This document shows positions 10,443 to 13,901 of a DNA stretch of 32,000 nucleotides, in pieces. A model generated the notes under the pieces. The model was not told the DNA's origin, did not search any database, and worked only from the letters and a program-made list of their open reading frames with translations. The position numbers and the translations under genes are program-made. The stretch comes from Pantanalinema rosaneae CENA516. Lineage in GTDB: Bacteria > Cyanobacteriota > Cyanobacteriia > Leptolyngbyales > Leptolyngbyaceae. The stretch is from the NCBI RefSeq assembly GCF_050753385.1, contig NZ_JBLZFZ010000032.1, positions 50,594 through 82,593 on the forward strand, in the 5' to 3' direction. Position 1 is the first letter of the stretch; each line of letters starts with the position of its first letter.

Positions 10443-13400
10443 TTGCTGCGTAGTGGGGTGAAGCAGTTTGTCGGGCGCGATCGCGCTTTAGCAACGTTGC
10501 AGGCTCAATTGGAGCGGGGCGATCGGGTCGTGATTAGTGCCATTCAGGGGATGGGAGGCATTGGCAAGACGGAGTTGGCGTTGCAATATGCGTTGTCGTC
10601 CTATCGGCAGCGACGGTATCCCGGTGGGGTGTGTTGGTTAGGGGCGCGAGACTTGGATGTAGGGACGCAAATTGTCTCGTTTGCTCAGAAACAATTGTCT
10701 TTGCTGCCGCCCGATGGAGAATTGGTGGATCAGGTAGACTTCTGTTGGCAACACTGGCGCGAGGGTAATGTGTTGGTGGTGCTGGATGATGTGACGGACT
10801 ATGCCGAGATTCAGTCCTATCTGCCGCCGTCTACCGAGCCTCGGTTTAAGGTATTACTCACGACGCGGCTGAATCTGGAACAGTCGGTGAGCCAAACGCT
10901 CCACATGCTGTCGCTGGATGTGTTGGAGGAAAAGGCAGCGCTGGATCTGCTGCGATCGCTGGTAGGAGCAGCACGAATTGATCGTCAATTGGCAGAGGCG
11001 CAATGGCTCTGTGAGTGGCTAGGCTATCTACCGTTGGGACTGGAATTAGTGGGGCGGTTTCTGATTGGTCAAGGTCAACAAGATTTATCTCTGACAGTAT
11101 TAAAACAGCGACTAGAAACCCAGCGGCTGGCAGCAAAGGCGTTGGCTAAAACCTATCCAGGGATGACGGCATCGCTGAATGTGGTGGCGGCGTTTGAGTT
11201 GAGTTGGCAAGAGCTAACTGAGTCAACCCAGGCGTTAGCTTACTGGTTGAGTTTGTTTGCGCTGACTCCGATCGCCTGGAAGCTCATGGCGGCAATGACA
11301 TCTGATGATGGGACGGAAGACCTGGAGGAAAACCGGGATGAGTTGCTGAATCTGCATCTGTTGCAACGGGTGGGAGAAGGCGCTTACCAACTGCATCAAC
11401 TGATTCGAGAATTCTTTCGTGCCAAGTTAGAGCAAACTGAAACGGCGGCAGCATGGAAGCAGACCTATTGCCAAGTTATGGTGCAGAGTGCCCAGCAAAT
11501 GCCGCAAAGCCCCACCATAGAGTTGATTCAGGCGGTGACGCTGGTCATGCCTCATTTAGCAGAAGCCGCCACCACCTGGCTTGCCTGGATAAATGATGAC
11601 GATTTGGCTTGGCTGTTTGTTGGTTTGGGACGGTTTTATGAGGGGCAGGGAGCCTATGCTCAAGCTGTTCCCTGGTATGAAAATTGTGTTTCTGTTACTC
11701 GCGATCGCTTAGGCGAGGATCATCCCGATGTCGCCACGAGTTACAACAACCTGGCGGGACTGTATGAATCGCAAGGACGCTATGCGGAAGCCGAACCCCT
11801 GTATCAACAAGCGCTGGCGCTGATGCAACGGCTGTTAGGCGAGGATCATCCCGATGTCGCCACGAGTTACAACAATCTGGCGGCATTGTACTATTCGCAA
11901 GGGCGCTATGCGGAAGCGGAACCAATGTATCAACAAGCGCTGGCGCTGCGGCAACGGCTGTTAGGCGAGGATCATCCCGATGTCGCCACGAGTTACAACA
12001 ATCTGGCGGCATTGTACTATTCGCAAGGGCGCTATGCGGAAGCGGAACCAATGTATCAACAAGCGCTGGCGCTGCGGCAACGGCTGTTAGGCGAGGATCA
12101 TCCCGATGTCGCCACGAGTTACAACAATCTGGCGGCATTGTACTATTCGCAAGGGCGCTATGCGGAAGCGGAACCAATGTATCAACAAGCGCTGGCGCTG
12201 CGGCAACGGCTGTTAGGCGAGGATCATCCCGATGTCGCCACGAGTTACAACAATCTGGCGGCATTGTACTATTCGCAAGGGCGCTATGCGGAAGCGGAAC
12301 CAATGTATCAACAAGCGCTGGCGCTGCGGCAACGGCTGTTAGGCGAGGATCATCCCGATGTCGCCACGAGTTACAACAATCTGGCGGCATTGTACTATTC
12401 GCAAGGGCGCTATGCGGAAGCGGAACCAATGTATCAACAAGCGCTGGCGCTGCGGCAACGGCTGTTAGGCGAGGATCATCCCGATGTCGCCACGAGTTAC
12501 AACAATCTGGCGGCATTGTACTATTCGCAAGGGCGCTATGCGGAAGCGGAACCAATGTATCAACAAGCGCTGGCGCTGCGGCAACGGCTGTTAGGCGAGG
12601 ATCATCCCGATGTCGCCACGAGTTACAACAATCTGGCGGCATTGTACTATTCGCAAGGGCGCTATGCGGAAGCGGAACCAATGTATCAACAAGCGCTGGC
12701 GCTGCGGCAACGGCTGTTAGGCGAGGATCATCCCGATGTCGCCACGAGTTACAACAATCTGGCGGCATTGTACTATTCGCAAGGGCGCTATGCGGAAGCG
12801 GAACCAATGTATCAACAAGCGCTGGCGCTGCGGCAACGGCTGTTAGGCGAGGATCATCCCGATGTCGCCACGAGTTACAACAATCTGGCGGCATTGTACT
12901 ATTCGCAAGGGCGCTATGCGGAAGCGGAACCAATGTATCAACAAGCGCTGGCGCTGCGGCAACGGCTGTTAGGCGAGGATCATCCCGATGTCGCCACGAG
13001 TTACAACAATCTGGCGGCATTGTACTATTCGCAAGGGCGCTATGCGGAAGCGGAACCAATGTATCAACAAGCGCTGGCGCTGCGGCAACGGCTGTTAGGC
13101 GAGGATCATCCCGATGTCGCCACGAGTTACAACAATCTGGCGGCATTGTACTATTCGCAAGGGCGCTATGCGGAAGCGGAACCAATGTATCAACAAGCGC
13201 TGGCGCTGCGGCAACGGCTGTTAGGCGAGGATCATCCCGATGTCGCCACGAGTTACAACAATCTGGCGGCATTGTACTATTCGCAAGGGCGCTATGCGGA
13301 AGCGGAACCAATGTATCAACAAGCGCTGGCGCTGCGGCAACGGCTGTTAGGCGAGGATCATCCCGATGTCGCCACGAGTTACAACAATCTGGCGGCATTG

Positions 13401-13901
13401 TACTATTCGCAAGGGCGCTATGCGGAAGCGGAACCAATGTATCAACAAGCGCTGGCGCTGCGGCAACGGCTGTTAGGCGAGGATCATCCCGATGTCGCCA
13501 CGAGTTACAACAATCTGGCGGCATTGTACTATTCGCAAGGGCGCTATGCGGAAGCGGAACCAATGTATCAACGATCGCTGGCGTTGCGGCAACGGCTGTT
13601 AGGCGAGGATCATCTTGATACCGCGATCAATATTGTCAGCCTAGCTGGACTCTACACGACTCTGGGGCGTTACGCCGAAGCCGAGCAGCTATATTTCCAG
13701 GCGTTGCAAGTGTTCCACACCCGTCTGGGAGCCGAACATCCTTACACCAAAGGAACGTTTAACGGTCTGGGCAATCTGATCATTCAGGCGCATCAGGCGA
13801 GTCGAGCCAACGAGTTATCCAACCATCCCACCACCCAGAACATCTTGCAGCAAATTCGAGCCCAGGGCACTGAGGATTCTGCCGAATCAGCTACTGGCTA
13901 A
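10443..13901 (+). CDS. STAND NTPase: NB-ARC (AP-ATPase) domain followed by kinesin-light-chain-type TPR repeats
   Basis: Motifs seen are Walker A GMGGIGKTELA, Walker B VLVVLDDV, LLTTR and the GLPL-like YLPLGLELVG. About 18 42-aa TPR units of the LGEDHPDVATSYNNLA..Y..QGRYAEAEP.Y..AL type follow. The only start in the track is TTG 10443, inside the conserved pre-P-loop segment (IPQNLLRSGVKQFVGRD). There is no ATG before the P-loop, so the true N-terminus is likely upstream (see the frameshift finding). Confidence 0.9.
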   Translation: MLRSGVKQFVGRDRALATLQAQLERGDRVVISAIQGMGGIGKTELALQYALSSYRQRRYPGGVCWLGARDLDVGTQIVSFAQKQLSLLPPDGELVDQVDFCWQHWREGNVLVVLDDVTDYAEIQSYLPPSTEPRFKVLLTTRLNLEQSVSQTLHMLSLDVLEEKAALDLLRSLVGAARIDRQLAEAQWLCEWLGYLPLGLELVGRFLIGQGQQDLSLTVLKQRLETQRLAAKALAKTYPGMTASLNVVAAFELSWQELTESTQALAYWLSLFALTPIAWKLMAAMTSDDGTEDLEENRDELLNLHLLQRVGEGAYQLHQLIREFFRAKLEQTETAAAWKQTYCQVMVQSAQQMPQSPTIELIQAVTLVMPHLAEAATTWLAWINDDDLAWLFVGLGRFYEGQGAYAQAVPWYENCVSVTRDRLGEDHPDVATSYNNLAGLYESQGRYAEAEPLYQQALALMQRLLGEDHPDVATSYNNLAALYYSQGRYAEAEPMYQQALALRQRLLGEDHPDVATSYNNLAALYYSQGRYAEAEPMYQQALALRQRLLGEDHPDVATSYNNLAALYYSQGRYAEAEPMYQQALALRQRLLGEDHPDVATSYNNLAALYYSQGRYAEAEPMYQQALALRQRLLGEDHPDVATSYNNLAALYYSQGRYAEAEPMYQQALALRQRLLGEDHPDVATSYNNLAALYYSQGRYAEAEPMYQQALALRQRLLGEDHPDVATSYNNLAALYYSQGRYAEAEPMYQQALALRQRLLGEDHPDVATSYNNLAALYYSQGRYAEAEPMYQQALALRQRLLGEDHPDVATSYNNLAALYYSQGRYAEAEPMYQQALALRQRLLGEDHPDVATSYNNLAALYYSQGRYAEAEPMYQQALALRQRLLGEDHPDVATSYNNLAALYYSQGRYAEAEPMYQQALALRQRLLGEDHPDVATSYNNLAALYYSQGRYAEAEPMYQQALALRQRLLGEDHPDVATSYNNLAALYYSQGRYAEAEPMYQQALALRQRLLGEDHPDVATSYNNLAALYYSQGRYAEAEPMYQRSLALRQRLLGEDHLDTAINIVSLAGLYTTLGRYAEAEQLYFQALQVFHTRLGAEHPYTKGTFNGLGNLIIQAHQASRANELSNHPTTQNILQQIRAQGTEDSAESATG
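11712..13601 (+). repeat. In-frame 126-bp (42-aa TPR) tandem array of 15 units; units 2-14 (11838-13475) are nucleotide-identical
   Basis: Unit starts (GGCGAGGATCAT) fall at 11712 + 126k. Line-by-line reading shows identical sequence in units k=1..13. Both the sense translation and the antisense ORF translation are perfectly periodic. Unit k=0 has many substitutions and k=14 has 3-4 (QRSLAL). Divergent TPRs flank the array. Confidence 0.95.

Follow-up and report, generated by a model that had tools for sequence, protein, structure and literature searches.

A nucleotide-identical tandem array of 126-bp TPR units in a cyanobacterial NB-ARC/TPR gene, and a conserved signal for a predicted -1 frameshift at its N-terminal junction

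How a gene comes to carry the same 126 nucleotides thirteen times over without a single difference, and how it is read when no ATG precedes its P-loop, are the questions raised by a 32,000-nucleotide stretch of the Pantanalinema rosaneae CENA516 genome (contig NZ_JBLZFZ010000032.1, positions 50,594 to 82,593 of the forward strand; hereafter the window, with positions counted from its first letter). The gene encodes an NB-ARC nucleotide-binding domain followed by a long TPR domain and is preceded by a small open reading frame (ORF) of 164 codons in another frame. With good confidence, the array is read here as tandemly duplicated 42-residue TPR units of the kinesin light chain type, very recently expanded or homogenised, in an NB-ARC/TPR protein of the STAND class to which the 164-residue module would be attached by frameshifting.

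Direct comparison of the thirteen units starting at 11838, 11964 and onwards to 13350 (11838 + 126k, k = 0 to 12) revealed 0 mismatches, as an earlier note on this DNA, made from the letters alone, had stated. Its description of progressively diverging flanks was likewise borne out, with 12 mismatches to the core unit at 11712 (unit -1; 90.5% identity), 3 at 13476 (unit 13) and 56 at 13602; the outermost units, at 11586 and 13728, carry 70 and 81 mismatches, respectively, and are hardly recognisable as DNA repeats. The base at position i equals the base at i + 126 for every i from 11825 to 13446, so that perfect periodicity extends from 11825 to 13572, a total of 1748 bp or 13.87 units. The one large array that Tandem Repeats Finder identified in the window spans 11709-13614, with a period of 126, 15.1 copies, 99% matches, 0% indels and a score of 3707. 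The period corresponds to 42 codons and lies in frame within the ORF at 10443-13901. Unit -1 differs from the core unit at six codons synonymously and at four non-synonymously, and residue changes are confined to the edge units (A16G, Y19E, M30L, R38M; Q33R, A34S), with none within the 13 core units. Against the measure of Dyrka et al. 2014 for high internal conservation (>85% repeat identity over at least 100 amino acids), identity is 100% over 13 units (546 amino acids) and at least 90% over 15 units. Chance is not a viable source of the array. The repeat unit also lacks a stop codon in one frame of the minus strand, and the 622-amino acid ORF that crosses the array there (11695-13563) is a by-product and not a gene.

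Whether the array is real, and whether its count is right, are matters of assembly. The strain was sequenced with HiSeq 2500 (Illumina) and PacBio HiFi, and the published assembly was made with SPAdes, Flye and hybrid SPAdes, followed by Pilon, SSPACE and GAPPadder (PMC12271159). Logan, a uniform k-mer (k = 31) re-assembly of public sequencing runs, provided an independent assembly in run SRR35487036, whose contigs _1738 and _301 correspond to window positions 1-11738 and 13543-25098 at 100% identity. The left contig ends at 11738, exactly where the k = 31 de Bruijn graph of the window must branch, and the start of the right contig is the last 30-mer that still matches the core unit, the first base peculiar to unit 13 following at 13573. 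Because the two contigs match the flanks throughout and break at the array edges, both borders, together with their variant edge units, are independently confirmed; the number of units between them is not.

An array that exists with a count of 13 produced by assembly is the alternative to be weighed at this point: the repeat loop could have been traversed too many or too few times, or gap closing and polishing could have homogenised slightly different units. Perfect arrays with a period near the read length are not resolvable by short reads, the Logan contigs do break at both edges, the published pipeline included hybrid SPAdes and the three programs that followed it, and short-read assemblies of fungal NLR repeats have been shown to drop or invent units (PMC11761791). 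The same behaviour is seen among relatives. The comparison set brought together 79 genomic loci that code for the nearest NB-ARC relatives with about 60 others belonging to this gene class, and 137 were analysed. In 23 of the 79 related contigs the sequence ends at most 2.5 kb downstream of NB-ARC, in or just before the contig's own array and in several cases inside a perfect 126-nucleotide repeat (e.g. L011, L021, L038, L051, L058 and L070), and many database entries of related NB-ARC/TPR proteins are labelled partial. Set against this, PacBio HiFi data exist for the strain and a HiFi read is much longer than the 1.75-kb array, a contig of 86,863 bp passes through it, the graded divergence of the edge units is the behaviour of a real array, and the variants of unit 13 and unit -1 are both present in the independent contigs. 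The earlier note had warned that a perfect array is an assembly hazard and that the copy number might be wrong; the hazard is real, as the early contig ends and the Logan breaks demonstrate, whereas the suspicion of an artefact is weakened by HiFi reads able to span 1.75 kb. An artefactual count is accordingly rated rather unlikely. That the array is real and long is likely, and that it holds exactly 13 units somewhat less so.

Shorter arrays of this kind occur outside the window as well. Adjacent 126-nucleotide units at least 90% identical occur in 62 of the 137 related loci and units at least 99% identical in 11. The longest run of adjacent units at this 90% level measures 15.3 units in the window against 6.5 elsewhere in the 137 loci, the latter in a metagenome-assembled Hormoscilla genome (locus L041), and the longest perfect run of period 126 elsewhere in the 79 loci is 3.5 units. 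These lengths form a censored distribution, because the comparison assemblies are largely short-read and 23 of the 79 contigs end early, and the array in the window may stand out mainly through long-read resolution. A scan of GTDB representative genomes and a protein search yielded no ortholog with more than 59% identity in the NB-ARC module, and no second strain of P. rosaneae was found. The NLR protein was also looked up as an exact sequence, begun at TTG or at GTG; neither form gave a match, and so no second copy of the array was found.

The array units belong to the TPR domain of the sensor part, C-terminal to NB-ARC, and are 42-residue repeats of the TPR_12/TPR_10 type according to Pfam, which agrees with their placement in a STAND sensor domain by the earlier note. 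The P-loop, GMGGIGKT, lies within NB-ARC at 10548-10571. As a three-unit query, the TPR sequence resembles the TPRs of kinesin light chains, with E values from 1e-56 to 1e-69 for KLC1/2 and the best match to KLC1 (1.5e-69). The Protein Data Bank (PDB) entries 4Y6C and 4Y6W also match (4Y6C, E = 1.3e-25) and, together with kinesin light chain TPRs, are the closest solved structures. We take these two entries to be a natural repeat protein with high internal identity from Marold et al. 2015 (the '42PR' class), whose source is said to be fungal (Podospora). The 42-residue unit is thus held in common with both the 42PR and the kinesin light chain repeats, with a match in sequence as well. The NB-ARC module is most similar to cyanobacterial NB-ARC/TPR proteins, with which it shares 54-59% identity. 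No Avs, bNACHT or other system model of PADLOC matched, the only results being the generic model PDLC01169 'TPR' and a weak CARF match. NB-ARC and TPR domains combined with a PADLOC result that is generic for TPR point to a STAND NTPase of the NB-ARC/TPR kind, bacterial and NLR-like, outside the characterised defence families.

Identity at this level bears directly on the origin of the array. Because it covers every synonymous site (0 differences in 1748), it indicates an event at the level of DNA and not selection on the protein, and a recent expansion or homogenisation of the DNA is well supported by the sequence. Unequal recombination and replication slippage are the classical mechanisms between direct repeats, and 126-bp units would have been duplicated by one or the other. 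With 126 bp equal to 42 codons, each such event would preserve the reading frame, and repeated events would keep the internal units identical while those at the edges escape and drift apart. A gradient of this sort towards the edges is typical of concerted evolution acting most strongly on internal units. Recency follows from the absence of differences together with the graded flanks, which would place the event later than the last substitution in the 1748 bp. The proposal of the earlier note, a very recent expansion or concerted evolution, fits both features, from which we infer the mechanism, the recency and the copy-number variation to be expected.

Functional selection on the units themselves is a different reading of the same identity, in which a periodic surface for a polymeric or repetitive ligand, or a required length of superhelix, keeps the units alike. 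The ORF is intact across the array, the unit is near both the family consensus and well-folded 42-residue TPRs, and long near-identical arrays recur in relatives, all of which would suit such a requirement. Selection on a protein cannot, however, fix synonymous sites, and here 1748 positions are identical while unit -1 already departs from the core at six synonymous codons; furthermore, relatives of the same family function with approximately 5-8 diverged units in proteins of about 600-740 amino acids. Selection as the keeper of unit identity is therefore considered very unlikely.

A recently homogenised array of this type has well described counterparts. A regime of high internal conservation is known from the WD, ANK and TPR repeats of fungal NLRs (Dyrka et al. 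2014, PMC4986451; PMC11761791), and for the TPR and WD repeats of bacterial NLRs an internal conservation of 80-90% is already on record (bioRxiv 10.1101/2020.01.06.895854). The analogy to fungal NLR repeats that had been drawn in the earlier note is an apt one, and this literature extends it to bacteria. The best studied fungal cases, HET-E/HET-D/HET-R and the NWD genes of Podospora (Paoletti 2007; Chevanne 2010; Dyrka 2014), are STAND proteins with C-terminal superstructure-forming repeats, have the same 126-bp, 42-amino acid unit with units 80-100% identical per gene, are attributed to unequal crossing-over and concerted evolution, and are a notorious problem for short-read assembly. Here the host is bacterial, and length polymorphism between strains is a feature of the fungal genes. 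Among the NB-ARC/TPR NLR-like proteins of multicellular bacteria (Koonin & Aravind; Urbach & Ausubel 2017; Dyrka et al. 2020; Kaur et al. 2020) and the antiviral STANDs (Avs), the NB-ARC and TPR architecture is shared, in this instance in a filamentous cyanobacterial host; the present protein differs in that PADLOC returned no Avs or bNACHT match for it and its N-terminal module is not fused in frame. The array is an extreme and unusually uniform bacterial member of this known class of repeats.

Some points speak against a recent expansion of a functional sensor as set out above. The copy number depends on a single assembly from a mixed pipeline. Instability and recency are both read from a single genome. 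In fungal arrays, moreover, conservation goes together with positions that are hypervariable and under positive selection; the 13 units here are uniform, and the unit comparison found no such binding-surface positions among them. Two readings follow: homogenisation or expansion may be so recent that diversification has yet to set in, or diversification is not the function of the array. Of the further suggestions in the earlier note, a hypervariable copy number is a reasonable expectation, and tuning of the solenoid length is speculation. A uniform array of this kind could be a substrate for ongoing variation in sensor copy number within filaments.

The second question concerns the start of the protein. 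Read upstream from NB-ARC, the NLR frame stays open as far as 10362, and no ATG occurs in it ahead of the P-loop; the first possible start is a TTG located 24 codons past a slippery heptamer at the end of the small ORF. No N-terminal effector or adaptor domain is found within the NLR ORF; the 164-residue domain lies upstream in the 0 frame, which is +1 relative to the NB-ARC frame, and could be joined to it only by a -1 shift. The small ORF (9886-10380) ends in GCA AAA AAG TAG and so contains A_AAA_AAG, the slippery heptamer of Escherichia coli dnaX and of the insertion sequences (IS) IS3/IS911 (PMC3711429, PMC5009743). A -1 shift at this heptamer would yield ...ALAKK-VVAQGQSGADPGTKLQQPIPQNLLRSGVKQFVGRD..., in which the 164-residue domain is fused to NB-ARC by a typical linker, in a predicted protein of roughly 1340 residues. 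The predicted trans-frame peptide at the junction reads ...ALAKK followed directly by VVAQGQSGADPGTK..., and contains ...ALAKKVVAQGQSG....

The arrangement was surveyed in 54 distinct loci spanning 30-100% protein identity. An in-frame A_AAA_AAR heptamer was found within a few codons of the stop in 49 of them, most of the others being truncated or poorly aligned. Of the 50 loci whose small ORF ends in KK, 43 carry the string NNA AAA AAG, where codon use in these ORFs would predict 6.9% (binomial p ~1e-42, an upper bound on the significance as the sequences are related). At homologous loci the -1 frame always continues into a long ORF. A P-loop is recognisable in 29 loci, where its median distance downstream of the heptamer is 59 codons. 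Only 11 of these 29 have an ATG ahead of the P-loop; in nine the ATG falls within the conserved FVGRDEEM motif, and its position is never conserved. The first possible ATG, GTG or TTG lies 13-56 codons downstream of the heptamer, often past conserved linker residues, and conserved linker and FVGR residues precede any start codon.

Candidate stimulators accompany the heptamer. A hairpin starts 2-6 nucleotides after it in almost every locus, with stems that differ in sequence among loci (GACCACGATC/GATCGTGGTC, TCTCCCGATC/GATCGGGAGA and GCTTCTCCTG/CAGGAGAAGC), and the 48 nucleotides downstream have a mean folding energy of -13.2 kcal/mol compared with -7.9 kcal/mol for random windows of the same loci (49 loci; Wilcoxon p = 4.5e-10). 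Folding was scored per sequence against controls from the same locus, the MAFFT alignment of 37 sites being nearly ungapped, with 3' arms of varying loop length misaligned. On the 5' side, a motif of the AAGG/AAAG type is present 8-14 nucleotides upstream in 42 of 49 loci, where it overlaps a conserved Lys codon and has weak pairing strength. No Rfam family reached its gathering score anywhere in the window, and 10300-10480 gave no match even at E <= 10.

In dnaX and IS3/IS911, -1 frameshifting likewise uses this heptamer in the 0 frame, together with a stem-loop shortly downstream; the AAGG/AAAG motif may take the place of the Shine-Dalgarno (SD)-like element found upstream there. The similarity to IS3 OrfA/OrfAB goes further, in that a shift at the end of a short ORF gives a long fusion there as well. 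The present case differs in its gene family, an adaptor domain with a STAND NTPase, and in having no Rfam frameshift element match. Nothing relevant linking frameshifting with NB-ARC, NACHT, STAND, NLR, defence systems or cyanobacteria was found in the full-text literature searched (subscription journals being outside its coverage), and the recoding review of Atkins et al. 2016, the GeneTack survey and a 2026 survey of bacterial STAND proteins make no mention of a STAND frameshift.

A gene in decay could look similar at first sight, with a frameshift mutation having split it from its N-terminal domain, its start codon lost and the array expanding as a neutral runaway in a pseudogene. The missing ATG ahead of the P-loop and the different frame of the upstream ORF would be expected from decay, as would Phormidium sp. 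CLA17 (locus L087), in which no gene is called downstream of the small ORF. The split is nevertheless the rule of the family, since heptamer, stop and open -1 frame are common to 49 of 54 loci; in the window itself the -1 frame runs for 3.4 kb without a stop codon, and the expansion preserved it. Decay is regarded as highly improbable. At L087 (JAEVYN010000001.1, positions 6498-8360), the 1.86 kb downstream of the small ORF are without a called gene and the -1 frame encodes an intact NB-ARC start; this gap is probably an annotation consequence of the frameshift, the ORF having no start codon.

For the window taken singly, a used frameshift faces some contrary observations. Its own hairpin ranks among the weakest of the family (against shuffles, z = -0.4), translation may also begin independently at TTG 10443 or GTG 10458 at this one locus, and GenBank apparently annotates the NLR as an ordinary coding sequence, with one protein accession between those of two neighbours. 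From the conservation of the signal across the family, a -1 frameshift that is in use is nonetheless predicted with high confidence.

Variation around the heptamer takes several forms. Five loci (L094, L099, L100, L115 and L132) have a run of nine A in place of A6G, two of which (L099 and L115) are linked to nSTAND4 (nSTAND_NTPase4); transcriptional slippage may replace ribosomal frameshifting in the A9 loci. A phase-variable A-run, switching expression on and off by slippage of the DNA, was considered and is unlikely, as none of the 54 loci has an in-frame variant and the sole A7 locus (L137) is still out of frame. The ORFs downstream of the heptamer are not all orthologous and encode NB-ARC(+DUF7779)+TPR, NACHT, nSTAND_NTPase4 or TPR-only proteins. 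At locus L140 (Logan SRR27453493_301488), a small ORF with 81% protein and 84% DNA identity to that of the window precedes a different NB-ARC subtype, one resembling the DUF7779-containing NB-ARC of L083. The pairing of similar adaptor ORFs with different STAND bodies indicates module shuffling at the frameshift junction.

The 164-residue domain itself has neither a Pfam nor an NCBIfam family and no PADLOC match. Its small-ORF family comprises 65 clusters, all from filamentous cyanobacteria, with full-length members of about 161-175 amino acids, almost all of which have ..AKK at the C terminus or one residue short of it. An AlphaFold2 model built on the family alignment has seven helices (pLDDT 91.3, pTM 0.82), and comparison of this model with the PDB by Foldseek gave only non-significant helical-bundle matches, the best at E = 0.94. 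A profile search of 1.84 billion representative proteins identified 300 members of the domain family, most of them stand-alone. In some members the domain is found at the extreme C terminus of TRADD-like_N, TIR, SEFIR/TIR, SNF2, NACHT or LRR-Roc-COR proteins, and in other, distant members it is in frame at the N terminus of nSTAND1 or AAA_16+TPR_12 NTPases (multidomain examples are P0186, P0190, P0281, P0189, P0275, P0231 and P0304). The existence of these in-frame fusions implies that the domain and a STAND NTPase together make a functional polypeptide. One TIR-bearing member, examined at the DNA level, ends in GCA AAA AAG TAA followed by a hairpin of -17.6 kcal/mol, with the -1 frame leading into an AAA_16/TPR STAND.

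The distribution of the domain recalls the EAD principle of Kaur et al., by which small terminal adaptor domains couple effectors to core NTPases through homotypic contacts (PMC7159879, PMC8195603); frameshifting is not mentioned in either paper. Like the EADs, the 164-residue domain is small, non-enzymatic, predicted to be all-helical, terminal and attached to core NTPases and effectors (TIR, TRADD-N, SEFIR) in multicellular bacteria. It differs in that no Pfam model, and hence no Pfam EAD model, matches it, and whereas the second copy of an EAD usually resides in an adjacent gene, here one coding sequence would be read in two ways. A pair of Bell domain and amyloid motif (BASS) was also considered for the two products and set aside, as the upstream protein is modelled confidently as a helical fold and the NLR has no N-terminal extension for a matching motif.

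By analogy, the protein is most likely a typical STAND, in which the TPR superhelix would bind a ligand, NB-ARC would oligomerise and the N-terminal module would signal. That module would be the 164-residue helical domain, attached only when the ribosome shifts by -1 at 10371-10377. The products of the locus would then be the free 164-residue protein and, less often, a fusion of this domain with NB-ARC and TPR. Homotypic contacts could then allow an NLR oligomer, once activated, to recruit or nucleate the free partner made from its own locus. Taken together, the loci probably represent a widespread and undescribed class of recoded genes, so far mostly from filamentous cyanobacteria, in which a conserved -1 frameshift joins an EAD-like adaptor to STAND NTPases (NB-ARC, NACHT, nSTAND4 or AAA_16/TPR), one start codon giving two products in a set ratio. 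The adaptor in this class would sometimes itself carry a TIR or TRADD-N domain, and the recoded locus would bring the EAD principle, and with it adaptor signalling of the inflammasome type, into a single gene.

Table 1. Features of the NB-ARC/TPR locus, in window coordinates
Feature	Position	Strand	Basis
Small ORF, 164 amino acids, 0-frame product; predicted all-helical, adaptor-like domain	9886..10380	+	ORF list, AlphaFold2 model
SD-like AAGG, 7 nt upstream of the heptamer; possible 5' stimulator	10360..10363	+	sequence
-1 frame open through linker, NB-ARC and TPR domain; stop at 13899-13901	10362..13901	+	ORF analysis
Putative slippery heptamer A_AAA_AAG, 0 frame (codons GCA AAA AAG)	10371..10377	+	sequence; TAG stop directly after, 10378-10380
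Predicted RNA hairpin, starting 3 nt after the heptamer; possible 3' stimulator	10381..10416	+	-12.2 kcal/mol for the 48 nt downstream
Mechanical ORF call, TTG start, 1152 amino acids	10443..13901	+	ORF list
NB-ARC nucleotide-binding domain	10488..11153	+	Pfam PF00931, E = 1.9e-16, residues 16-237
TPR sensor region, 42-residue units, 18 periods of 126 nt, the outermost degenerate	11586..13853	+	Pfam, 17 TPR_12/TPR_10 stretches
High-internal-conservation array, 15 units with identity of at least 90% to the core unit	11712..13601	+	repeat finder, unit comparison
Thirteen nucleotide-identical 126-bp units	11838..13475	+	base-by-base comparison; independent contigs end at the array edges

The surroundings of the locus (see Table 1 for its features) contain two further groups of genes. 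Directly upstream of the small ORF, six ORFs of 295, 290, 452, 569, 374 and 408 amino acids follow one another on the same strand at 2242-9620, and no significant Pfam family was found for any of them; the block is not conserved beside the small ORF in other loci, where an ABC transporter or Uma2 is found instead. On the minus strand, at 15646-16292, an ORF of about 134 amino acids with a PIN domain and an 80-amino acid partner upstream of it form a VapBC-like toxin-antitoxin pair. A similar pair, of a 78-amino acid and a PIN protein, lies directly downstream of the NLR at locus L084.

The array provides a clean bacterial example, fully homogenised, of the concerted-evolution regime that research on fungal NLRs sees as an engine of receptor diversification. 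It also indicates that public short-read assemblies of cyanobacteria systematically truncate the sensor domains of this family, and with the strain in culture the stability of the copy number is directly measurable. Of the two results, the conserved frameshift signal is the more novel, as no earlier description was found in the literature searched. Programmed -1 frameshifts in bacteria make a short list, comprising dnaX, IS elements, phage tail chaperones, copA and csoS2. If true, the frameshift would add a new class of cellular genes to it and would explain why many cyanobacterial STAND genes are without a start codon and mis-annotated. It would further suggest the ratio of free adaptor to adaptor-NLR fusion as a regulated quantity in bacterial NLR-like signalling.

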